From positions 23,216-87,215 of the forward strand of contig CAZEEI010000001.1 in assembly GCA_964511175.1 (NCBI GenBank): DNA of 64,000 nucleotides. The letters run 5' to 3'. Below, one piece after another: positions 6,587 to 63,196 of the stretch. The notes under the pieces were generated by a model. The model searched no databases and was not told the DNA's origin. It was given only the letters and a program-made list of their open reading frames with translations. Numbering within the stretch: position 1 is the stretch's first letter; every line of letters starts with the position of its first letter. The translations under genes and the position numbers were made by a program. The stretch comes from an uncultured Pseudomonadales bacterium (GTDB lineage Bacteria > Patescibacteriota > Microgenomatia > UBA1400 > UBA1396).

Positions 6587-7237
6587 GTGAAGCAATGGTG
6601 GCGACAATATTGGTTACGCACGGTGCTTGGACTTTCCGGGTTGATAAGTTGTGTCTTGGGAGCAGTTTTTACCTACAAGGCCCACTATGAACACCCGCAG
6701 TATAGTTACTTGCCGGCCGACCAGGAGTGGCGTGATCACTTACACGAAGTAGTTGACTTAGCCCGCCGTCAAACGGATGCGTCCGCTGCCGCCGAACTCC
6801 TGGTTGATGTGGCTGGTGCAGTGGTTAAACCTGGTGTATATCAAGTTAACGCCGGCGGACGCATCCAAGAGGCTATTTTGGCGGCCGGCGGTTTTGCTGT
6901 GGAAGCAGATCAACAATATATCCATCAAAAGCTAAATTTGGCCGACCTACTGCACGACCGTAGCAAAATTTATATTCCCTTTACAGGTGAGATTGATCCG
7001 TCCGTTCAAGCCAACACTGATGCCAGTGTATCAACGACCGAAACTAGTCAGATAGTTAATCTCAATACTGCCAGTAGTATCGAATTGCAGAGTTTGACTG
7101 GAATAGGTGACAAAAGAGCTACGGAAATTATTGCGGCGCGCCCAATTGCTAACGAGCAGGATCTAATTGCCCGCACTAGTATCGGCGCAAGTATTTTGAC
7201 TAATATTATTGCTGATGGATTTACTTTGACATATTAA
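6587..7237 (+). CDS. comEA: Competence protein ComEA (SLBB domain plus helix-hairpin-helix DNA-binding domain)
   Basis: N-terminal TM anchor. C-terminal VNLNTASSIELQSLTGIGDKRATEIIAARP is an HhH motif typical of ComEA. Confidence 0.8.
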   Translation: MKQWWRQYWLRTVLGLSGLISCVLGAVFTYKAHYEHPQYSYLPADQEWRDHLHEVVDLARRQTDASAAAELLVDVAGAVVKPGVYQVNAGGRIQEAILAAGGFAVEADQQYIHQKLNLADLLHDRSKIYIPFTGEIDPSVQANTDASVSTTETSQIVNLNTASSIELQSLTGIGDKRATEIIAARPIANEQDLIARTSIGASILTNIIADGFTLTY

Positions 7238-7515: not shown

Positions 7516-8409
7516 ATGGTTGATGTTTTGGCTGATGCTCAAGCATTGGGAGCGGGCCTCTTGATAGGCAATGACCGCGGGTTGTCGTCGTCTGCCAACC
7601 AGCTTTTCCAGGCTGCCAGTATCCAGCACCTCACTGCAGCCAGCGGGGCTAATCTGGGTTTGGCGGTCTGGCTGGCTGGGCCACTACTTTATCCCTGGAA
7701 TTACCGACTCAAACACCTGGGCAAAGGGATAGTTTACGCTGTTTACTGGCTAATCGCCGGCGGTAGCGGCTCTCTTTGGCGGGCGTCAGTGATGGCCTTA
7801 TTATTATGGTTTAGCCACTGTTTAGGTCGTAAAACGGCTCAATGGTATGTCTGGTTGTTCACTATCTTGGTGGGCCAACTAAGTAATGTTTCTTATTACC
7901 GCACCAAGGGATTCTGGTTGTCGGCCGCCGCGGTACTAGGAATGTTGTTTTCACAGAAAGTTAAGCCAGGTGAAAATTACATGGCCTTATTACCGCAATG
8001 GCAAAGGTGGGTTAAAAGCTTATTTTTGCCTATATATTTTGGCTTAATAGTGACTATCTTTGTGTTACCTTTTCTTTGGCAATTCTTCGGTCAATTAAGC
8101 CTCAACAGCGCTTTTTCCACCGCTTTAGCTTCGCCTTTTATTTTCCCCCTACAGTTGACCGCCTTATTTTTCTTCGGGTCTCAGCATTTTCTCAGGTGGG
8201 TAGCGCCTTGGTTGGCTCTATGCCTAGTCGGAGAATACCGTCTTTTTACCCACTTCATTAGGCAATTTGTTAATTTTATCCAATCCAGTTGGTTTGTTTT
8301 GTTTTCGGTAATGAGTTTAATTGTGGCGCTGAGGTTAGGTTTTCGGGTTTGCCGATTAATTCAACAACAACGATACTGCCAAAAGCGATATCAAATATGG
8401 CAAGTTTGA
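7516..8409 (+). CDS. comEC: ComEC/Rec2 N-terminal polytopic competence-domain portion
   Basis: Multi-TM competence-domain-like sequence. Ends at TGA 8407-8409, overlapping the next ORF, which is in a different frame. Confidence 0.55.
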   Translation: MVDVLADAQALGAGLLIGNDRGLSSSANQLFQAASIQHLTAASGANLGLAVWLAGPLLYPWNYRLKHLGKGIVYAVYWLIAGGSGSLWRASVMALLLWFSHCLGRKTAQWYVWLFTILVGQLSNVSYYRTKGFWLSAAAVLGMLFSQKVKPGENYMALLPQWQRWVKSLFLPIYFGLIVTIFVLPFLWQFFGQLSLNSAFSTALASPFIFPLQLTALFFFGSQHFLRWVAPWLALCLVGEYRLFTHFIRQFVNFIQSSWFVLFSVMSLIVALRLGFRVCRLIQQQRYCQKRYQIWQV

Positions 8410-9272
8410 TGTTCAGCGCCAATCGCTTAGGTTTACTAATTGGCGGCGGATTGTGTTTAGTTGGTTGGTTTATGGCGGCTACTCAGCCAATTTATCCCCA
8501 AGTGATAGCTTGTGACGTAGGTCAAGGAGACGCGATCCTCCTGCGCTATGGTACAGTTGCGGTTTTAGTAGATGTTGGACGGAAACAAGGCATCTTGCCC
8601 TGTCTAAGATATAAGCTTGCTTTGGGGCAGACCAGCATCCAAACAGTTCTTCTCACCCATTGGGACGATGATCATATCGGGGCTTTTTCGGATGTAGCGG
8701 CGGCCTACCGGATTGGAACAGTGATTAGTAACCCGAACATTAAGGACTCAACTACCGCTCAACAAGTGGTTGAAACAATTAAGCAGGCCAGGGTAAATTT
8801 GACTCCCAGTCCGGGCGATGAACTGGTTTTCCCGGGCGGCAGGGTTCGTTTTGTCTGGTCGGCAACAGCGATAAGCGATCCCGCCACCAATACAACCGAA
8901 AATGATCGTTCCATTGGGATAGTGGCTAGCTTTAAAAGTTTCGGGTTTTTAGGTCTAGGTGACCTAGAGTGTGCCTCAGAATTAGCAGTCTCTAACTTAC
9001 CTCTGCTAATTTCGACGCCAATTTTAAAAATATCGCACCATGGGTCAAAAACATCATCTTGCACTCCTTTTATCGCTAAAATTGAGCCCGAAATAGCGAT
9101 CCTCTCGGTTGGTGAGGATAATAAGTATGGTCATCCCGCAGCAGAAATTTTAGCGATTTTGCGCGACCAGGCGACAACGGTTTTACGTACCGACCAGCTG
9201 GGTAGCCTGGAGATCCAGAGGAAAGGGAAAAATTGGTTATGGCGTTCGCAGCGTTGGTCAAACAGTGATTAA
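8397..9272 (+). CDS. comEC: ComEC/Rec2 C-terminal metallo-beta-lactamase domain portion
   Basis: TM helix, then VIACDVGQGDAILL...LLTHWDDDHIGAF...ISHHGSKTSS MBL motifs. Starts at ATG 8397, overlapping the upstream ORF by 13 nt in another frame. Confidence 0.6.
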   Translation: MASLMFSANRLGLLIGGGLCLVGWFMAATQPIYPQVIACDVGQGDAILLRYGTVAVLVDVGRKQGILPCLRYKLALGQTSIQTVLLTHWDDDHIGAFSDVAAAYRIGTVISNPNIKDSTTAQQVVETIKQARVNLTPSPGDELVFPGGRVRFVWSATAISDPATNTTENDRSIGIVASFKSFGFLGLGDLECASELAVSNLPLLISTPILKISHHGSKTSSCTPFIAKIEPEIAILSVGEDNKYGHPAAEILAILRDQATTVLRTDQLGSLEIQRKGKNWLWRSQRWSNSD

Positions 9273-12124: not shown

Positions 12125-12592
12125 ATGCAAAAATCAGCAGTTTTAGTTAAACCAGATGGTTTGCAACGCGGCTTAATCGGGGAGATCATTTCCCGGTTTG
12201 AGCGCAAGGGTTTAAAGCTGGCCGGAATTAAGATGATCCAGTTAACCGATGAGATTCTGGATGAGTGGTATTCTCACCACAAAGATAAGCCATTTTTCCC
12301 TAAGTTAAAGGGATTTATGATGCAAACACCGATTGTCGCCATGGTTTGGGAGGGGGTCGATGCCATTGATACCATCCGTCAACTGGTTGGTATTACCAAA
12401 AGCCGGGCTGCTGAAGCCGGTTCGGTACGGGGCGACTTAGCCATGTCGATGTCCAATAATCTAATCCATGCTTCTGACAGCACGCAGGCTGCCCAACGCG
12501 AAATAGGGCTGTTGTTTGGCGAGGAAGATATTTTTACCTACGTGAGTGCGACCGACGTACTGGTTTATAGCGATGAAGAACGCGACCTTTAG
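12125..12592 (+). CDS. ndk: Nucleoside diphosphate kinase
   Basis: AVLVKPDGLQRGLIGEIISRFERKGLKL...NLIHASDS with the catalytic His region. Start at ATG 12125 after an AAAGGAAAAAG RBS. Confidence 0.85.
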   Translation: MQKSAVLVKPDGLQRGLIGEIISRFERKGLKLAGIKMIQLTDEILDEWYSHHKDKPFFPKLKGFMMQTPIVAMVWEGVDAIDTIRQLVGITKSRAAEAGSVRGDLAMSMSNNLIHASDSTQAAQREIGLLFGEEDIFTYVSATDVLVYSDEERDL

Positions 12593-13553
12593 GGTGTAAC
12601 CCTCCAGGCGTGGAGTGCAAATGGGAACCTCCTCTCCCTCTTAATTCGGCCCACCAGACGCCTAGGGCAACCAAGGCTAAGGCCACCATTACACCAGGCG
12701 TGACCGGTTCGTGGAGAAAAAACACGGCCAGAGGCACGTAGAAGATTGGTTCCAGGTAAGTAAATAAGCCGGCCTCAGAAGCCTCCATGTTATTTTGGCC
12801 AATAATATAGGCGGTTAAGCCGATAATCGAACCAAATGTTGCCATATAAAGACTGGACCAGCCCACAATCGGCTGCTGCAACTGCTGCCAGCCAATCGAC
12901 ACCAACTCGTTAAAGTTTAAGCCGAGTTTAAACATCGAAAGACCGGCAAAACATACCATGCCAACGTAAAAACTAATCGTGGTGACAAAAAATTTAGGCA
13001 GTTTTTGATAGTATTTTTTGGCCAGCAGCAAGGCGGCGGCCATAATGAAATTGTAAGCAACGACCAAAGCGTTACCGCTAAAAGAAACCCGGTCCACCAA
13101 CATCTGTCCGTCGAGTAGGGGTTCAATGGCCAGAAAGAGCGTACCACTCAAAGCTAGACCCAAACCAATCCATTCGCGTTTTTCCTCTTTTTCGTGTAAG
13201 AAAATAATGCCACCGAGCGTCAAAAAAAAGGGCAGAGTGGTGACGATCAAACTGGCTTCTAGTGAAGAAGTGCGGTCTAGTCCTTCATATAAAACACTTA
13301 GAGCCAGTACAGTGCCCAGTAGTTCAATGCCGACAATACGGGGAATGTAGCGGATTAACCGCCGCTGTCGCCAAAGGTACCAAACTAAAATCGGCGTAGA
13401 AAGGATTGCCGCCAAAACATAGCGGTAAAGCAAGAATTGAAAGGGGGTAGTAACGGAGAGCGCCGGTTTCACAATGGGCAGAGCCACACCCCAAACGGCA
13501 ACATTAATCAGCAGAAAAATTACGCCGATAGTACGTGGTCGTAAGGCAGGCAT
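12534..13553 (-). CDS. EamA/DMT-family transporter (about 10 TM)
   Basis: Two repeated 5-TM halves typical of the drug/metabolite transporter superfamily. Start at MPALRPRT (13553). The 3' end overlaps the ndk 3' end by 59 nt. Confidence 0.6.
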   Translation of the reverse strand: MPALRPRTIGVIFLLINVAVWGVALPIVKPALSVTTPFQFLLYRYVLAAILSTPILVWYLWRQRRLIRYIPRIVGIELLGTVLALSVLYEGLDRTSSLEASLIVTTLPFFLTLGGIIFLHEKEEKREWIGLGLALSGTLFLAIEPLLDGQMLVDRVSFSGNALVVAYNFIMAAALLLAKKYYQKLPKFFVTTISFYVGMVCFAGLSMFKLGLNFNELVSIGWQQLQQPIVGWSSLYMATFGSIIGLTAYIIGQNNMEASEAGLFTYLEPIFYVPLAVFFLHEPVTPGVMVALALVALGVWWAELRGRGGSHLHSTPGGLHPKGRVLHRYKPVRRSHSRR

Positions 13554-18587: not shown

Positions 18588-19385
18588 ATGAGAATGAATG
18601 TGCACAGACTTTTAGCCGCCGACATCTTTTTGTCATTATCGGGTTCAACTGCCTTGACTGCAGCGAGTGGTAAAGCTTTTGCAGTGCCAGTGCGCTTATT
18701 AGTGGAGCTACCTAGTTACCGCATTGTGGCTTTAGGCGAAGAAGCGCGAGCCGTAGAACATGCGGGGATTGGCCGCAGCCGCGTGATTGTGCCGTGTGAT
18801 GAGGTAGAAGTTTTTGATGAGCGGGGTGCCGAAGTGTTTTTGCGCGGGTTGTTTCGTATTGTGCTTGGTTCCGGTTTTTTGCTAAAACCCAAAGTATGGT
18901 TGGCTTTGCCGGGGAGAACTACGCCTTTTATGCAGGAAGTGTGGTTGAAGGTGATCTTGGCGGCCGGCGCCCGCGACGTAGTGCTGGTTAATCCGCTGTT
19001 AGCGATTGCCGCGGGCGCCGGCCTTCCTTTAGATTCCGCACACGGTTATGCGGTGGGCAGTATAACGGATAAAGGAGTCGTTTTAGGATTAGTGGCTTTT
19101 AGTCACGTGCAACAAGAGGTGTGGCAGCCGGTGGAAAGTTCGTCGGCGGAAGTTGCCGACGTCAGTCTCACCGCTTTGTCCCAGGCCTGGCAGAAGTTGC
19201 TACCCCAAGTGCCGGTTGAATTTGCTAGCTCACTGCAGCGGGAAGGGGCAGTGTTGGTTGTGCCAGAGGATTCAGCCGAATGGTCTCAGGCCTATACTAA
19301 TGTTTTGGGTGTGCCGGTTTCGACTTTTGAACGAACCACGGCCGTTTTGGGTCTACGTGCCCTGGCGAAGGAGGAGAATGCGTAA
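18588..19385 (+). CDS. Divergent MreB/actin-fold protein with degenerate nucleotide-binding motifs (265 aa)
   Basis: Aligns to MreB: VALGEEA..., AAGARDVVLVNPLLAIAAGAGLPL is close to the MreB ...[23 protein letters not shown] motif. Phosphate-1 (DIFLSLSGSTAL vs DLGTANT) and phosphate-2 (SITDKGVV vs DIGGGTTE) are eroded. Confidence 0.5.
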   Translation: MRMNVHRLLAADIFLSLSGSTALTAASGKAFAVPVRLLVELPSYRIVALGEEARAVEHAGIGRSRVIVPCDEVEVFDERGAEVFLRGLFRIVLGSGFLLKPKVWLALPGRTTPFMQEVWLKVILAAGARDVVLVNPLLAIAAGAGLPLDSAHGYAVGSITDKGVVLGLVAFSHVQQEVWQPVESSSAEVADVSLTALSQAWQKLLPQVPVEFASSLQREGAVLVVPEDSAEWSQAYTNVLGVPVSTFERTTAVLGLRALAKEENA

Positions 19386-20133
19386 CGCGGTGATTAAGGC
19401 GATCATTAGGCATTGTTTTACTGGTACTGGTCAAGAGTTTCAAGATTGGTGGCAACAACATTTGCAGACAGGTCATGGTTTACAGTTGATTTTTACGCCT
19501 AATCCCGAGCAAAGCGTATTGGCAACCGATAGCGACACATTTCGTGATTGTTTGCTAAGCGGTGATCAGCTATTAGCCGATGGCGCCGGTCTGGTGTGGG
19601 CCTCACGCCTGGAGGGTGTCACCCTCCACCGTATAACCGGTGTGGATATGACGGCTTGGTGGTTGCGGGTAAATCGCCAAGGAAAGGTGTCAACCTTACT
19701 GATTGGCGGCCGCGACAACGTGGCGGCAGATTTGGCGCGCCAAGTTGATCCTGACGACCAGTGGTGCTCTGGTATATCTGGCCACCTCAACGTCGCGGCC
19801 GCCCATGATCCGGCCTATCAAGATCAGATGGCCGATGAAGAACAAGCAATTTTTGACGCGATTAAAAAGAGAAAACCACAAGTAGTATTAGTTGCCTTTG
19901 GCGCTCCATGGCAGGAAGAGTTTTTATGTCGTCATCGGGAACAACTGGCCAAACTAGGCGTCAAAATAGCGATGGTCTGCGGTGGGGCTTTCGATTATCT
20001 CACCGGTCAAGCACCGCGCGCTCCTGGCTGGTTGCGGGCGATTGGCCTGGAATGGCTGTTTCGGTTATGGCAAGAACCCTGGCGCTGGCGGCGACAACTA
20101 CGGTTAATACGCTTCATTCACCTGGTGGTGTAA
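19378..20133 (+). CDS. WecG/TagA-family (GT26) glycosyltransferase
   Basis: LLADGAGLVWASRLEGVTLHRITGVDM aligns to the conserved ADGMGVVWAARLLG...RVAGSDL region of WecG/TagA. Start ATG 19378 overlaps the upstream stop. Confidence 0.7.
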   Translation: MRNAVIKAIIRHCFTGTGQEFQDWWQQHLQTGHGLQLIFTPNPEQSVLATDSDTFRDCLLSGDQLLADGAGLVWASRLEGVTLHRITGVDMTAWWLRVNRQGKVSTLLIGGRDNVAADLARQVDPDDQWCSGISGHLNVAAAHDPAYQDQMADEEQAIFDAIKKRKPQVVLVAFGAPWQEEFLCRHREQLAKLGVKIAMVCGGAFDYLTGQAPRAPGWLRAIGLEWLFRLWQEPWRWRRQLRLIRFIHLVV

Positions 20134-22464: not shown

Positions 22465-22676
22465 AAATGTCCTTTATTATTTTGGGCGACACGACCGAAA
22501 AAAGGAAAAAGTGCGGCTCATAGCGAGCGAAACTATTTTCTCTCCTCGGCACAATGTCGGTGCTTTCTTTGGATCGAGAACTGAATTATAGCAGAAAAAT
22601 GCGACTAAACAAGGTTAAAAGAGAAAATCAACCCTTCTTGCCAAAGTATTACTTTTTTAGTAAAGTATTACCAATT

Positions 22677-22922
22677 ATGAACGGTATTACTACTATTACC
22701 AGTAAAGGCCAGGTAGTTATTCCTAAGTCGATTCGGGATCAGTTTGGCCTCAAGCCCGCCAGCAAAGTGCAGTTTATGGTTAAAGATCAAACTATTTTTT
22801 TGCGTGTACAGCCCTCGGTTAGAGACATCATGGGATCGCTATCAACGTCACGTCGCCTCAATCGCCAACAAGAAAAAAGCGCTTTTGCTCAAGCGGTTAT
22901 TGATGATGTACAGGATAAATGA
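22677..22922 (+). CDS. AbrB/MazE/SpoVT-type antitoxin (VapB-like)
   Basis: ITSKGQVVIPKSIRDQFGLKPASKV swapped-hairpin motif. Start ATG 22677 inside track ORF 22554..22922. Confidence 0.6.
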   Translation: MNGITTITSKGQVVIPKSIRDQFGLKPASKVQFMVKDQTIFLRVQPSVRDIMGSLSTSRRLNRQQEKSAFAQAVIDDVQDK

Positions 22923-23275
22923 CGATCTTAGACACAAGTGCTGTTTTGCGTTTTCTTTTACGAGACGATCGGGAGAAAGCCGAGCAGGTAGCTTTGGTTT
23001 TAGAAAATGAATCGTCAATATTTATTCCGCAGGCAGTTTTTATTGAACTCGATTTTGTGTTGCGTAAAAGTTACCGAATTTCCCGTTCGGACGTAGCTTA
23101 TCAACTCAGTAGTTTGAGCGATCTGCCCAACGTCAAAACTGACCCAGAGACCCGCGTTGCTTTAACCATTTATTTGGGTACCAATTTGAGTTTAGCCGAT
23201 TGTTTCGTTTTGGCGTACGCTCATGGCCAGAGCTTGTGTTCTTTTGATGTCGATTTAATGAAAAACCGCTACTAA
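22919..23275 (+). CDS. PIN-domain toxin (VapC-like)
   Basis: MTILDTSAVLRFLL..., 118 aa, start overlapping the antitoxin stop (ATGA). Confidence 0.65.
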   Translation: MTILDTSAVLRFLLRDDREKAEQVALVLENESSIFIPQAVFIELDFVLRKSYRISRSDVAYQLSSLSDLPNVKTDPETRVALTIYLGTNLSLADCFVLAYAHGQSLCSFDVDLMKNRY

Positions 23276-26201: not shown

Positions 26202-26262
26202 GAAGCGGCATTATACCATAGCGCTTGGCCTAGGTTGGTGTATCAAAATGGCCAAAACCGAT

Positions 26263-26345
26263 AGTTGTACAACTATGATCTGGTAGAACCTTTTCGGTAG
26301 AGACTAGACTTGAGGTAAGTTGTACAACTGTTGGTTTGGCTGGTT
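26263..26345. repeat. Copy A of a ~85-bp intergenic repeat unit bounded by two AGTTGTACAACT 12-bp palindromes spaced 55 bp apart
   Basis: About 88% identical to 56280..56362. Sits in the divergent secE/galU intergenic region. Confidence 0.6.
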
Positions 26346-26418
26346 TTGATAGATAAGCCCGAACCAGATTTTCGCCAGGATTCTCCAATAAAGCGGCCTT
26401 CTGTTATACTGGTTTCCT

Positions 26419-28625: not shown

Positions 28626-28757
28626 ATGACCCGTCAGGTTATGTTGAGGTATTCATTCCTCGATAGTTTGCTTACGGGAGGAGCCGTGTCCCTCAAAAGA
28701 CCGTCCACCCACCTGGATTTTTCCGGGGGCAATGCACTCAACATGCTGACGGGTCAT
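28626..28757. repeat. Imperfect inverted repeat (~22-bp arms ATGACCCGTCAGG..TTGAG / CTCAA..CTGACGGGTCAT) flanking ~90 bp just after metK
   Basis: Left arm 28626..28648 and right arm 28737..28757 are reverse complements apart from a short indel. Confidence 0.5.
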
Positions 28758-29089
28758 TTTATTGGGAAGAGAGCGCTGACCTGCCGCAAAATTTCCACTA
28801 GTTTCTGTTCAGTCAAATAACCGGCCGACTTTTGGATGATCGTTGTTTCCGCAGTAAATAGCTTGTCTGGTCGAGCATAACTGGTTAGCGGTAAACTACC
28901 TTGGCGAAAATCGCTAGCTTGGATTCTAATCGCCAGTCGGCTCGAGTAAGGTTTGGAAGTTATTTGACACAGAATAAAGTTACCGAACTCGGCTTGAGCC
29001 AAAACCAAAGCTGGTCGTCGCTTCTGACCGCGTAAATCGGAAAACGGGAAAGTGACGACCACTATCTGTCCAATTACAAATCGGCCCAC
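28754..29089 (-). CDS. MazF/PemK-family endoribonuclease toxin
   Basis: GQIVVVTFPFSDLRGQKRRPALVLAQ has the conserved MazF/PemK N-terminus. 111 aa. Confidence 0.7.
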   Translation of the reverse strand: MGRFVIGQIVVVTFPFSDLRGQKRRPALVLAQAEFGNFILCQITSKPYSSRLAIRIQASDFRQGSLPLTSYARPDKLFTAETTIIQKSAGYLTEQKLVEILRQVSALFPIK

Positions 29090-33085: not shown

Positions 33086-35185
33086 TTATAACCTTTTACC
33101 GGAAATGGAGGCTTCGATTACTTTCAACCGCTCGGTGGCGAACTCCTCGCCAGGCTTAAGCTGGAGAATTTTTTGATATTGGTCAACGGCGGCTGACCAA
33201 TCTCCGGCCGACTCCAAAAACTGGCCAAACTCGTGTCGAGCCTCTTCATAGTTGGGCTTAAGAGTGATGGCTTGGGTGAAGGCGGCGCGGGCGTCGTCGT
33301 TGCGGTGGAGACCACCCAGGATTACGGCACGATTAAAGTAAATTTGGGGATCAGTAGGAGCCAATTGTGCGGCCTGTTCGAGAGCGGCGAGTGCTTCGTC
33401 GTAGTAGCGGGGATCCAGCTTGGCCAAATAAAGGAACACTTTGGCGCGTGATTTCCAAAAAGACAGATGTACCGGATTGAGGGTAACAGCGCGATTAGTG
33501 GCAGCAATGGCTTCGTTGCCTAGTTGGGCTGCAATGGTGGCATCGGTTGGTGCGGCAGCGGTGGCTAAATTCGCCATAAAAGTAGCGGCTTCATCCCAAT
33601 ATAGAGCTTCGCGGGAGGCGCGCTGAGTGAGTTGTTGGAAAAGCTGATAGGCGATGAGTGGCTGTTGGCGCAGTACTTGGCGCTTAGCTTGCGCGAGTAG
33701 TCGGTCATTGGCCCAGGTTCGACAAACTGATAGTAAGGCCAAACCGGTAGCCAGACCCACAACGAGGGTTAGTAGCGAAGAACCGTCCAACTCTACTTCC
33801 CATTCGTCTGAGATCCGATCTCGTTTTAGGGTTACACCCTCCAGGCGTGATGTAGCGGCAGATTCGATCTCATTGATAAAAATCCAAGCCGGCATGAGGA
33901 AGAAAAGAACACCTACCGTTACCGTGGAAAAACCGAAAAAGTTTGATACGGCTAATGCTAGGTAACTGGCCAAAATAGCTGTCGCCAGGGTATTGTGCCG
34001 CCGCAGTAACTGCCAAATCACCGCCCCCATGAGCGTTAGGAGAGCAATGAGTCCAACCGCGCCGGTGGTGGCAAGCGCGTTAAGAAATTCATTGTGCGCT
34101 TTGTTATAGAGAAAATTCCATTCGGACACGGTGTTGTGGGCCAGGGGGCGGTCACGGTAGTAACTATAGGCGAAGGTTTCCACACCGGAACCAAAGAGTG
34201 GGTATCGCTGCCAGACGGCCAAAGCCCCGGACCAAACGATTTGGCGAATAGCACCAGAGTTGGTGCCGCCGTTTTCTAGAACGGTGCCGACCGAAGGAGC
34301 GGCGGGACGCTCAATGGTAGCGGCGGATGGTGGTGAGCTAGGTGAAAAGCGGGCGATCCATTTGAAAGCAGTCGGCGTAAAGGGAGTGCCAAAAAGGAGG
34401 GCAAGAATAACAAATGACGCCAGGAGGGTTACACCCTGAGCAATCCCACGCCTGGAGGGTGACACCCTCAGCCAGACGGCACCGCTAGCGACAAATCCTA
34501 GCAGGCCAGAACGCGAGCCGGTAAATAGCAATACAGTGAAAAACAGCGGTATGCTGGCGGCGCTTAACCAACGTTCCAATTTGGTTCGAGATTGTTGCCA
34601 GAGCCACAACGATAAAGGTAGCAACATAATCAAGTAGGCGGCCAACCAATTAGGCTGGCCAAGAGTGCCAAAGACCCGCGTTTGTACATCCTGTACCCAG
34701 CAACTTACCGAAAATTCACCCGTGATTAAAACGCAGCTTGGCGAAACACCAAAATGTTCCGGTAGGGCATAAAGAGCCACACCAATACCGGCATAAACCA
34801 CTGAACGCACGAGCGGTTTTAGATCATGCCGATCCAAATTACTGACCGCCGCAAAATAAAGTGTTAAGTAGGCTAAAGTCGAAAGCAGTCCGCCGTGGAA
34901 ACGCGAATAATAGCCGAAGATACTGGTGGCAACGTGAATCGAAGTAACTGTGGAAAGCAACTGACTAGTAAGGAAGAAAATGATCGGCCAAAACAAAAGA
35001 GTCCGCTGAAAGATAATTTTTTTAGCCCGAATCATTCGGACCAACCATAAGCCGGCAATCAGGCTGGTGTAGGCGTAAACCAGCATCATTTTATTGAATT
35101 CGAACAGTTCTTCATTGACCGCCGTGAAAGCAAAGGGGACGGTGATTACTAAGGCAGAAAACAACCAAACAATGGCACGGCGCAT
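33086..35185 (-). CDS. O-antigen ligase (Wzy_C)-like polytopic membrane protein fused to C-terminal TPR repeats
   Basis: N-terminal ~12 TM region with NKAHNEFLNALATTG. C-terminal TPR-like repeats (AAFTQAITLKPNYEEARHEFGQFLESAGDWSAAVDQYQKILQLKP). Contains copies of the dispersed GC-rich palindromic repeat (33828-33850, 34420-34468). Confidence 0.6.
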   Translation of the reverse strand: MRRAIVWLFSALVITVPFAFTAVNEELFEFNKMMLVYAYTSLIAGLWLVRMIRAKKIIFQRTLLFWPIIFFLTSQLLSTVTSIHVATSIFGYYSRFHGGLLSTLAYLTLYFAAVSNLDRHDLKPLVRSVVYAGIGVALYALPEHFGVSPSCVLITGEFSVSCWVQDVQTRVFGTLGQPNWLAAYLIMLLPLSLWLWQQSRTKLERWLSAASIPLFFTVLLFTGSRSGLLGFVASGAVWLRVSPSRRGIAQGVTLLASFVILALLFGTPFTPTAFKWIARFSPSSPPSAATIERPAAPSVGTVLENGGTNSGAIRQIVWSGALAVWQRYPLFGSGVETFAYSYYRDRPLAHNTVSEWNFLYNKAHNEFLNALATTGAVGLIALLTLMGAVIWQLLRRHNTLATAILASYLALAVSNFFGFSTVTVGVLFFLMPAWIFINEIESAATSRLEGVTLKRDRISDEWEVELDGSSLLTLVVGLATGLALLSVCRTWANDRLLAQAKRQVLRQQPLIAYQLFQQLTQRASREALYWDEAATFMANLATAAAPTDATIAAQLGNEAIAATNRAVTLNPVHLSFWKSRAKVFLYLAKLDPRYYDEALAALEQAAQLAPTDPQIYFNRAVILGGLHRNDDARAAFTQAITLKPNYEEARHEFGQFLESAGDWSAAVDQYQKILQLKPGEEFATERLKVIEASISGKRL

Positions 35186-39063: not shown

Positions 39064-40242
39064 ATGGCAAAAATTACCCAACGCGATCTGGCGATTATTT
39101 TGCGCTCAGCTTATCCGGCTTCTTTTTGGACAGTACGCACATTGGTTGCCTTGGCTGAGCGGCATGGTGCCGAACAAGTTGATCGCTGGTGGCAAAACGG
39201 TCAGGTTGAAGTTTTTCGCCAGGGCTGCGTTGATTTATTGACCAAAAATGCGCTTACCGAAACTTTAGCACAGCGTGAACTCACCCGTTTAAACCATTTT
39301 TTTCAACAACAACGTTGGCAATCTTTGGCAACACTGCAGAAATATTGGCACCGGCAAAACCAACTTTTGGCTCGCCGCGGCATTATTATCACTACCTTTT
39401 TTGATCCAAATTGGCCGATTCGCTTAAACGAATTGGTGGAGCCGCCTAGCGTTTTATGGAGCACGCGCCCCTTAGCTCCATTACTGGATCGTCCTTGTTT
39501 GGCGGTAGTGGGGACGCGTTCGCTGACTTATTATGGCCGCCGTGCGGCGACTTATTTTGGCAGGGTTTTAGGCGGCGACTACGGTATAACGATTGTATCT
39601 GGTTGTGCGCGGGGAGCTGATTGGACAACCCAAGCGGCGGCCTTGCGCGCCGGCGGGCAGAGCATTGGTTTATTAGGTTGTGGCATCACTTACCCGCCGG
39701 CGCGCTGTCAGGAAGTACCCGCTGATTCCCGGTTGGCGCTAGTTTCCGAGTTTGCTCCTTTTTCCCATAGTGCCAAATGGTATTTTCCCTTCCGCAACCG
39801 CTTAATTGCCGGCTTAGCCCAAAGTGTGCTAGTGATTGAAGCCGGGGAACATAGCGGCAGTTTTATCACTATCCAAGCCGCGCGCGAGCAAAACAAAACG
39901 GTAATGATCCTCAGTCAGCCTTTTTTTAATGACAACACTCATGCTCTCCAGGCTTTGGCTGGTGAGGGTAGCGCCCGTGTAGTGGTGCGTCCGGAGAATG
40001 TTTTGGAAGAGTTGGGTATCAAAGGTAAATCTGGTCAGCCGCTACCAACTCTCCCAAAAGTTTTGGTTTTGGCTCAAAATGAAGCCGAACAACAAGCACT
40101 TACCGCACTCTACCAACGCGGCGGTCAAGCTTTTGCTAGTGATTTATCCGCCTGGAAACAGGCCTGTCTTAGCCTGGAAGCACGCGGCTTAATTAGCGAA
40201 CAACTAGGTGTCTATCAGCTTTCAGGTATGATACAGTCTTAA
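39064..40242 (+). CDS. dprA: DNA processing protein DprA (Smf) with N-terminal extension
   Basis: LAVVGTRSLTYYGRRAATYFGRVLGGDYGITIVSGCARGADWTTQAAALRAGGQSIGLLGCGI is a DprA Rossmann-like signature. Confidence 0.8.
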   Translation: MAKITQRDLAIILRSAYPASFWTVRTLVALAERHGAEQVDRWWQNGQVEVFRQGCVDLLTKNALTETLAQRELTRLNHFFQQQRWQSLATLQKYWHRQNQLLARRGIIITTFFDPNWPIRLNELVEPPSVLWSTRPLAPLLDRPCLAVVGTRSLTYYGRRAATYFGRVLGGDYGITIVSGCARGADWTTQAAALRAGGQSIGLLGCGITYPPARCQEVPADSRLALVSEFAPFSHSAKWYFPFRNRLIAGLAQSVLVIEAGEHSGSFITIQAAREQNKTVMILSQPFFNDNTHALQALAGEGSARVVVRPENVLEELGIKGKSGQPLPTLPKVLVLAQNEAEQQALTALYQRGGQAFASDLSAWKQACLSLEARGLISEQLGVYQLSGMIQS

Positions 40243-42881: not shown

Positions 42882-42925
42882 GGCTCGGGGCTGGTTGGGT
42901 ATATTAAAAACTGTTTTTTGTCATT

Positions 42926-42977
42926 TTGTACAAAATCGACGGTTAACTTGTACAACAACCTGGCCTAAATTGTACAA
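42926..42977. promoter_or_regulatory. Array of three TTGTACAA palindromes with exact 22-bp centre-to-centre spacing, upstream of dut
   Basis: Sites at 42926-42933, 42948-42955 and 42970-42977. The same motif and spacing recur at 52648-52699. Confidence 0.55.
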
Positions 42978-43013
42978 AAGAGCAGAAACGTGTTTTTGAA
43001 ATATAGGGGGACT

Positions 43014-52614: not shown

Positions 52615-52647
52615 TGGCCAATATTTCAAAATAGCCAAAACCGCCTA

Positions 52648-52699
52648 TTGTACAAAAAGAACATCTGTTTTGTACAAAATGGCTGATCAAATTGTACAA
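52648..52699. promoter_or_regulatory. Second array of three TTGTACAA palindromes at exact 22-bp spacing (convergent tsf / membrane-gene intergenic region)
   Basis: Sites at 52648-52655, 52670-52677 and 52692-52699. Confidence 0.55.
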
Positions 52700-52732
52700 C
52701 TATCGGTTTTTGGGTTTTCAATATATTTCCCT

Positions 52733-56238: not shown

Positions 56239-56279
56239 AGATTTTCAGTAGGAATGTTTCAAAAACCCAAAAACCAGTA

Positions 56280-56362
56280 GTTGTACAACTATGATCTTGT
56301 GGAGCCTTTTCGGTTGAGGCTGGACTCGAGGTAAGTTGTACAACTGTTGGTTTTGGTCATTT
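56280..56362. repeat. Copy B of the ~85-bp repeat unit bounded by AGTTGTACAACT palindromes
   Basis: About 88% identical to 26263..26345. Sits in the convergent prs / HAD-gene intergenic region. Confidence 0.6.
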
Positions 56363-56375
56363 TGATATATGCTGT

Positions 56376-62509: not shown

Positions 62510-62553
62510 AGTTGTGATTGACCAATACACATATTTGTGTGTACAATTCGGCC

Positions 62554-62859
62554 ATGAATATTAATGCGGCTCGTCAAATACAGTATTGGCAGGATTTATC
62601 GGCCGGTTTGTTGTTGGGTAAGGTTAAGGCAGATCGACGTCTCCAAGTGAAGATGCCTAGCCAAGTGGTGGTCCAACTGGACGCCTTGTTTCCTGATGTT
62701 GACCGTAGTTTTGTCTTAACCCAGCTGGCGGTTAATGCCATTGCTCAGGAATTAAAATTTCACGACAGGGAGGCGTTGCGTTCTTTGGCTAGTGCCGAAC
62801 AGAGTGGTTTAGATGACATGTTGGTTTATCTGGAGAAAAGGGATGCCGAGTCAGACTAA
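62554..62859 (+). CDS. Putative antitoxin partnered with the downstream PemK/MazF toxin
   Basis: Small acidic protein immediately upstream of, and overlapping, the toxin gene. Confidence 0.35.
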   Translation: MNINAARQIQYWQDLSAGLLLGKVKADRRLQVKMPSQVVVQLDALFPDVDRSFVLTQLAVNAIAQELKFHDREALRSLASAEQSGLDDMLVYLEKRDAESD

Positions 62860-63196
62860 CCCTGTTTTGCCGAAGGCAGGCGATATTTTTCTCGTTAAGT
62901 TTCATCCGGGGTATGGAACGGAGTTGCGCAAGTACCGGCCGGCAGTGATTGTTTCGGATCGAGTTACCTTGGCCGACCAGCGCTTTGCCCTCATCGCTCC
63001 TTTAACCACCAGTACTAAAATTTTTCATCCTCGGACAGAATTAACCATTAAGCGCAATCCTGCTTTAGAAAAAGATTCGGTTTTATTATGCTGGTATTTA
63101 TGGACAATTGATGTTGATCGATTGGTAAGAAAATTAGGTAGTTTAAGTTTGACCGATCAACATAAGATGACTGAGATGCTACGCGATTTATTTTAG
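62843..63196 (+). CDS. PemK/MazF-family toxin
   Basis: PKAGDIFLVKFHPGYGTELRKYRPAVIVS is the MazF/PemK signature. Confidence 0.65.
   Translation: MPSQTNPVLPKAGDIFLVKFHPGYGTELRKYRPAVIVSDRVTLADQRFALIAPLTTSTKIFHPRTELTIKRNPALEKDSVLLCWYLWTIDVDRLVRKLGSLSLTDQHKMTEMLRDLF

Follow-up and report, generated by a model that had tools for sequence, protein, structure and literature searches.

We found that a 64-kb stretch of DNA (the window) carries a dispersed repeat whose unit is a 13-nt hairpin, AGGGT-NNN-ACCCT, followed by an unpaired tail, CCAGGCGTG(A/G)G, on one side only. The repeat is best grouped with the small palindromic repeats known from bacteria, in this case members of the candidate phyla radiation (CPR), and we put at about 0.55 the probability that it is a mini-element of a Woesebacteria-like CPR subclade, resembling either the repetitive extragenic palindromes (REP) and their hairpin-forming doublets (REPINs) or the transposable elements of the miniature inverted-repeat type (MITEs). 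The hairpin with its compensatory changes, the tail, the free loops, the multi-unit hairpins, the insertions as blocks and the lineage-specific loci all fit such an element. Two traits of the family are unusual, namely its anchoring to stop codons in one polarity and its length-neutral copies inside housekeeping genes. Judging from its gene content and from the best homologues of its proteins, which are labelled Woesebacteria, Microgenomates, Pacebacteria or Patescibacteria, the window appears to belong to a genome of a Woesebacteria-like CPR type. It is a compact housekeeping region with genes for leucyl-tRNA synthetase (LeuRS), ComEA, a split ComEC, nucleoside diphosphate kinase (NDK), ribosomal proteins, NusG, MreB/C, a penicillin-binding protein (PBP), DprA, topoisomerase I (Topo I), def and fmt. 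The genomes of CPR bacteria are tiny and densely packed, and these organisms are thought to depend on DNA scavenging.

In the window, ACGCCTGGAGGGTNNNACCCT occurs exactly at 12591-12611 (-), 19605-19625 (+), 33828-33848 (-) and 34448-34468 (+), and with one mismatch at 34417-34437 (+). A preliminary description of this DNA had located the repeat at these same five places, on both strands, and had argued that it could not have arisen by chance, which our count bears out, as dinucleotide-preserving shuffles of the window predict 0.03 sites. Allowing three mismatches gave no extra copies in the window, and nhmmer with a nine-copy profile detected no weaker or degenerate ones there beyond the five. 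The identity of at least 20 nt that had been claimed was too generous: the copies agree at 20-22 of 23 positions, their longest common exact runs are only 14-17 nt, and their differences are confined to the 3-nt loop (GTC, GAC, GTA, TAC and TAC). The copies are spread over three unrelated loci, up to 22 kb apart, and an independent short-read assembly (Logan SRR8925802, L013) contains the same three copies in the gene for a Wzy_C plus tetratricopeptide repeat (TPR) protein, which excludes an artefact of assembly. The shuffles, the unrelated loci, the independent assembly and the occurrence of the motif in other samples and studies together refute the view that the repeat is due to chance similarity, to a recent duplication within the region or to a fault of assembly or polishing; we found nothing in favour of that view and regard its probability as negligible. 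The preliminary description had also considered that the motif might be restricted to these loci; it is present in other genomes. In 71.5 kb of the source genome (the window plus the flanks from Logan contigs) there are four loci, or about one per 18 kb. The copies, numbered c1 to c5, and their host genes are as follows.

12588-12615, + strand: copy c1, with the unit AGGGTGTAACCCT at 12591-12603 and the tail CCAGGCGTGGAG; the unit shares its first two bases with the NDK stop TAG (12590-12592).
19601-19628, - strand: copy c2, in the WecG/TagA gene, reading CCTCACGCCTGGAGGGTGTCACCCTCCA on the + strand; its palindrome (8 bp + 3 + 8 bp) is the best among the copies.
33825-33851, + strand: copy c3, antisense in the Wzy_C plus TPR gene, with the unit AGGGTTACACCCT at 33828-33840 and the tail CCAGGCGTGAT.
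34414-34472, - strand: two-unit array c5 + c4, in sense orientation in the Wzy_C plus TPR gene, with units at 34425-34437 and 34456-34468 and a 31-nt period.
12125-12592, + strand: NDK, host gene whose native stop overlaps c1.
12534-13553, - strand: EamA-family transporter, host gene ending in a non-conserved read-through of ~30 residues (about 12534-12640), which crosses c1 into NDK antisense.
19378-20133, + strand: WecG/TagA-family glycosyltransferase, host of c2.
33086-35185, - strand: Wzy_C (O-antigen ligase-like) plus TPR protein, host of c3, c4 and c5.

To follow the family beyond the window, we collected the DNA around homologues of the host proteins in related organisms and scanned sequence collections for the exact motif. 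The family is present in five related metagenomic genomes, as one to three units. Among 185,579 species genomes, a collection from which the source genome is absent, the exact-motif scan returned 12 matches, which is chance level except for four in one metagenome-assembled genome (MAG), Candidatus Woesebacteria MFD05674.bin.2.125 (loci L002, L005, L007 and L009). The exact motif gave only high-GC singletons or nothing in metagenome and viral collections. The other loci are the following.

L025, an ENA contig with a 63% Wzy orthologue: six units AAGGTCWGACCTT in 22 kb.
L024 and L030, SRR25419747: one three-unit element each.
L031, JGI 3300037424, GC content 59%: element at the NDK/EamA junction.
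L032, SRR22388142, GC content 56%: element at the NDK/EamA junction.

In L025, the genes for Topoisomerase I, the PBP and other proteins are split into many small open reading frames (ORFs), as expected of uncorrected long-read indels, and statements on reading frames in this contig are unreliable except at def/fmt. A relaxed unit pattern had no match in ~81 kb of related CPR DNA (L026, L033, ~7.5 kb of Logan flanks of the window, and L034-L036, which are 51 kb from more distant relatives), implying that the family is confined to a subclade and that the background of the relaxed pattern is about zero. All loci are lineage-specific except the one at the NDK/EamA junction.

Across these genomes the general family unit is RRGGT-NNN-ACCYY, often lengthened by CTG/CAG and carrying the one-sided tail; on the side opposite to the tail, the hairpin is often preceded by CTG. 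The preliminary description had drawn two full arms of CCACGCCTGGAGGGTGT forming a long hairpin, which are present in no copy. The palindrome is instead a stem of 5-8 bp with a 3-nt loop, the longest being 8+3+8 at 19610-19628 (c2), and CACGCCTGG is a one-sided unpaired tail rather than a palindrome arm. All 22 units counted form the 5-bp stem. As the first count of stem types had used units selected for complementarity, we recounted them without that filter and obtained 12 AGGGT/ACCCT, 8 AAGGT/ACCTT and one mixed (G·T) stem; the AAGGT type is present in three different genomes or contexts, and two variants occur within one genome or even one element (L009 and L024). A symmetric switch is seen at the inner positions as well, GGGTG.CACCC in the window corresponding to GGGTC.GACCC in the MAG. 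The loops are free to vary, also at the orthologous NDK site (TAC, AAG and TTC). The tail CCAGGCGTGAGG is identical in four genomes that range in GC from 47 to 59%, and a CCAGAG... tail takes its place in two other relatives.

Elements consist of one to three units, with a period of 31-33 nt in every multi-unit element. Multi-unit elements fold as one long hairpin (z -2.9 to -6.1), and those of L024, L030 and L025 (16322/16353) reach -19 to -29 kcal/mol (z -5 to -6); the three-unit elements of L024 and L030 are about 75 nt long and have terminal inverted units, with 19-nt arms in L024. Single units fold at -5.7 kcal/mol in c3 (z about -1), -7.3 in c1 (z -1.2) and -10.9 in c2 (z -2.3). In an Rfam 15 scan only tRNAs reached gathering scores, and the elements gave sub-threshold chance matches. 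The symmetry of the unit could also be read as the binding site of a dimeric DNA-binding protein, such as an operator, a site for a nucleoid or partition protein, or the core site of a recombinase, in which case the covariation would reflect a change of specificity. This would suit the core, GGGTGWCACCC or GGGTCWGACCC, which is symmetric even where the 3-nt loop prevents pairing (pair 12-14), and the recurrence of units at about three helical turns (31-33 nt). We consider it very unlikely, because stem variants coexist in one genome or one element (L024 and L009), an asymmetric conserved tail is attached, most sites lie on stop codons or inside genes and not at promoters, and no candidate regulator adjoins the sites in the window.

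At 8 of the 17 loci, a real gene (150 codons or longer) has its stop codon completed by the first one or two bases of the tail-bearing unit, and at all eight the order is stop, hairpin, tail. The genes concerned are NDK in the window, in L031 and in L032, def in L025, the gene for ribosomal protein L1 in L024, and three MAG genes. From gene density, we estimate that such an overlap would occur by chance at about one locus in a thousand. Two junctions reveal insertion as a block. At def/fmt, two units amounting to 45 nt follow ATGAAG in frame in L025 and are missing from L026 (MKIGICGTT); this insertion begins on the def stop codon and adds 15 codons to fmt. At EamA/NDK, an element of one or two units lies between the two stops, as compared with L030, in which the junction is element-free and the EamA and NDK stops overlap by 4 nt. 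We also noticed that in the window fmt has seven extra N-terminal codons compared with L026 (32476-32491, - strand, the 5' end of fmt); this segment, AACCCTATCTGGCGCG, lies at the def/fmt junction that holds the two-unit element in L025. It bears a weak, non-significant resemblance to the half element ACCCTCCAGGCGTG and may be a decayed copy.

The NDK/EamA junction is the one place where the element can be followed across diverged genomes. In the window, c1 overlaps both the NDK stop (ctt TAG GGT...) and the ~30-residue non-conserved read-through of the convergent EamA gene. The preliminary description had placed all copies inside coding sequence, which is correct for the TagA and Wzy/TPR copies; the copy at 12591 lies on the NDK stop and in this EamA read-through. 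The junction holds one unit in the window, one in L032 and two in L031, all overlapping the NDK stop, and the NDK C-terminus (...DEERDL, then stop) is unchanged and identical in L031. Stem and tail are identical in the window, L031 and L032, and the three loops all differ. The EamA read-through of the element is SRLEGKTL or SRLEGFTL in L031/L032 and STPGGLHP in the window, and since the tail peptide differs while the nucleotides agree, it is the DNA that is maintained and not the peptide. The junction copy is either one old constrained insertion or the result of repeated insertion into the same stop codon; the identity of EamA, 65% to L030 and 61% and 59% to L031 and L032, does not choose between the two.

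Such positions raise the possibility that the repeat is a cis-regulatory RNA hairpin of the host at the 3' ends of genes, serving termination, protection of the mRNA 3' end or modulation of translation termination, and kept by selection, with the intragenic copies as by-products. The constant polarity to the upstream gene at the eight stops agrees with this, as does the copy at the NDK end: three diverged genomes have it at one and the same position, with stem and tail preserved and only the loop free. L005 and L007 share a stretch TATAMT GAATTCAT after the element, just upstream of whichever gene or tRNA comes next, and repeated terminator-like hairpins at gene 3' ends, such as SPRITE, are known (PMC10969869). 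Unlike SPRITE, however, the present repeat has no T-tract, sits with its unit on the stop codon itself and has many copies that lie within a gene or run antisense to their host. In no copy does a T-run come after the hairpin, so none qualifies as an intrinsic terminator, and the single-unit stems given above are weak. Genes of the window do not generally end in a hairpin at the stop codon: 3 of 67 have one, against 3.4 expected at random positions. In addition, two of the window copies run antisense to the gene that harbours them and two lie internally in sense orientation, and NDK of L030 does without the element. Altogether, we consider a regulatory 3'-end hairpin unlikely as the primary explanation.

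Regarding the two MAG loci L005 (3917-3950) and L007 (7005-7040), we observed that the two-unit element is followed by a shared GTATA(C/A)TGAATTCAT, which resembles a -10 box and lies directly upstream of a gene start and of tRNA-Trp. Some elements may carry an outward promoter.

Copy c2 encodes A-S-R-L-E-G-V-T-L-H in WecG/TagA, which is antisense to the unit-then-tail polarity of the copy, and c3 encodes T-S-R-L-E-G-V-T-L-K in a variable loop of the Wzy_C plus TPR protein, confirming the earlier remark that the same nucleotides yield SRLEGVTL in two unrelated proteins. In the array c5-c4, unit plus tail is repeated directly at a 31-nt period; the array is opposite in orientation to c3 and encodes W-L-R-V-S-P-S-R-R-G-I-A-Q-G-V-T-L-L-A-S, which is the entire inter-helix loop (RVSPSRRGIAQGVTLL). 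The TagA site has the same length in the six closest homologues (WASRLKGKPVAR, AARLLGKKLER etc.), so this copy, as had been supposed, is not a simple insertion. The orthologous TagA DNA of L024 and L033 matches the element at about chance level outside the S-R-L codons and is unrelated at the loop codons. From the equal length of the homologues and this chance-level match, c2 is a codon-for-codon patch replacement. It may have come about by short-patch conversion from one of the other copies, or by an insertion balanced by a deletion of equal size. Both Wzy/TPR sites fall in hypervariable loops. At c3 the loop is as long as that of the orthologue with 58% identity, and at c4/c5 every homologue has a longer loop. 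None of the intragenic copies in the window is a net insertion. A 12-nt direct repeat flanks c3 (33811-33822, AGATCCGATCTC, and 33860-33871, AGATTCGATCTC; 11 of 12 identical and 49 nt apart), each half of which is itself palindromic; it could be the remnant of a target duplication or due to chance. A 7-nt flanking repeat at c2 is within chance.

For a REP/REPIN- or MITE-like element, the copies would be made or homogenised by a process that recognises the folded hairpin together with the tail, and such a process would hold stem and tail constant while loops drift. From the repeat family we infer mobilisation by a hairpin-recognising enzyme. A candidate is an HUH/Y1-type enzyme acting in trans, as for REP and its associated transposase (RAYT); alternatively, template switching or short-patch conversion between copies might achieve the same. 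The copies persist where they are least harmful, which is mostly on stop codons in one polarity and here also in tolerant protein loops, and the gene-end hairpin may influence the mRNA 3' end. Several observations weigh against an element of this kind. We examined four host ORFs and 40 other window ORFs with Pfam, and precomputed domains for the remainder, and no transposase or recombinase was found among the window ORFs or among the precomputed domains of the window and the annotated flanks. The window doublet c5-c4 is direct and not inverted, and four of the five window units lie inside ORFs, where REPs are extragenic by definition. A consistent target-site duplication was not found, the 12-nt repeat being present at c3 only, and the length-neutral c2 (no indel) and c3 (compared with the closest orthologue) are unexplained by simple insertion. 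Finally, copies were counted in only about 72 kb of the genome.

We compared the repeat with several known systems. To our knowledge, REP/RAYT systems have been described mainly in Proteobacteria and not in CPR. REPINs have conserved palindromic cores, hairpin-forming doublets and compensatory changes, with singlets as remnants (PMC3116915). Like the REP/REPIN systems mobilised by RAYT (Y1/HUH), the present family combines a short imperfect palindrome with an asymmetric conserved flank, compensatory stem changes and singlets beside doublets (PMC3116915), a within-lineage consensus is kept while individual loci turn over, and multi-unit elements in the relatives L024, L030 and L025 form long hairpins. 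In contrast to REP/REPIN, the units here are smaller, with a core of 13 nt and a total of about 26-31 nt, many copies sit on a stop codon with fixed polarity, and the window units are not extragenic, the fifth lying on the NDK stop and EamA read-through. REP/REPIN families number tens to hundreds of copies per genome, and the 71.5 kb covered here contain four loci. A RAYT (Y1/HUH transposase) gene, which REPs usually flank, was not found among the window ORFs or the annotated flanks of the loci. MITEs are typically 50-500 bp long with terminal inverted repeats and a target duplication, and the window copies are below this size range.

The Rickettsia palindromic elements (RPEs) are likewise palindromes tolerated in frame in unrelated housekeeping genes, in surface or loop regions (PMC10969869), and as in RPEs, different proteins contain one and the same peptide encoded by identical nucleotides. 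Unlike the window copies, which span 23-29 nt (55-59 nt for the doublet) and bring no net gain in length, RPEs are about 100-150 bp long and add a peptide. A clear in-frame insertion of the RPE type is found only in fmt of L025 (the 15 codons described above). Elhai et al. reportedly described, in 2008, small dispersed repeats (SDRs) of 21-27 nt in cyanobacteria, which PMC3116915 also mentions. Like these, the present family consists of mobile-looking repeats of ~20-30 nt sharing a predicted hairpin that is backed by compensatory changes. It differs in belonging to another phylum and in its sequences, and SDRs are tied to heptamer arrays, HIP1 and nested insertions; we know of no description of stop-codon anchoring for SDRs. 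The HIP1 context of cyanobacteria was also considered, and GCGATCGC is absent from the window.

The preliminary description had favoured a DNA uptake signal, like the neisserial DNA uptake sequence (DUS) or the Pasteurellaceae uptake signal sequence (USS). The competence machinery would then favour DNA carrying CACGCCTGGAGGGT, the motif would spread by drive and recombination, also into genes, and copies at gene ends would serve as hairpins too, as inverted DUS pairs do. ComEA (6587-7237), ComEC (7516-9272) and DprA (39064-40242) are encoded, as had been stated, and the 14-nt tail-plus-stem CACGCCTGGAGGGT is the same in four genomes over the GC range of 47 to 59%. Like DUS and USS, the copies occur in both orientations, in and outside genes; the TagA copy, which brings no indel, stands opposite unrelated orthologous sequence, as reported for new DUS, and DUS pairs frequently form terminator hairpins after genes (PMC2397512). 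Against this, the density is roughly ten-fold lower, about one locus per 18 kb compared with roughly one per 1.1-1.5 kb for neisserial DUS (PMC2397512). What is conserved is a hairpin with compensatory changes, with two stem variants in one genome (L009 and L024), and even CACGCCTGGAGGGT is replaced by the CCAGAG-type tail and AAGGT stems in two relatives and the element is absent in others. Moreover, the 31-nt periodic arrays of two or three units and the arrival as blocks of 45-53 nt are unlike DUS/USS, and one-polarity overlap with stop codons is no known property of either. These features point elsewhere, and we regard an uptake signal as distinctly improbable. The broader idea that the motif is a self-recognition tag for a trans-acting CPR machine, for example an uptake signal read by ComEA, ComEC or a pilus that doubles as a gene-end hairpin, seems to us equally improbable; a nearby alternative to it is a mobile unit of roughly 31 nt that targets stop codons specifically.

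A targeted literature search found no description of repeat families in CPR genomes. The favoured reading as a REP/MITE-type element would mean that hairpin mini-elements persist in CPR genomes and are maintained at the DNA level across very different GC contents. Intergenic space being scarce, the copies land on stop codons or in protein loops and rewrite short peptides of housekeeping enzymes. If the stop anchoring is a matter of target choice, it implies an unusual insertion specificity; if it reflects a function, it would be a new gene-end signal. If the uptake-tag reading were true, it would place an uptake sequence outside Proteobacteria. In practice, the motif is useful as a lineage marker, and it is also a source of spurious local similarity between unrelated genes.

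Another repeat family of the window is intergenic and has as its basis the palindrome TTGTACAA, which has 11 sites there compared with 1.25 expected. Its copies lie at 26239-26354, 42900-43003, 52626-52727 and 56253-56370. Two of them, which share 84% identity with each other, measure about 115 nt, have inverted arms of 34 nt and hold two TTGTACAA at a distance of 55 nt; the remaining pair contain three TTGTACAA each, with 22-nt spacing. Short-read contigs break at the 56.3-kb copy. This family could be an operator array or a MITE. Genes for type II toxin-antitoxin systems (MazE/PIN, and PemK twice) are found at 22554-23275, 28754-29089 and 62518-63196 among ribosomal and housekeeping genes. 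The ComEC gene is split into an ORF with the Competence domain (7516-8409) and one with the metallo-beta-lactamase domain (8289-9272), which overlap by about 120 nt. A two-gene ComEC is also present in four relatives (L030, L031, L034 and L036), so the split is probably not a sequencing error.

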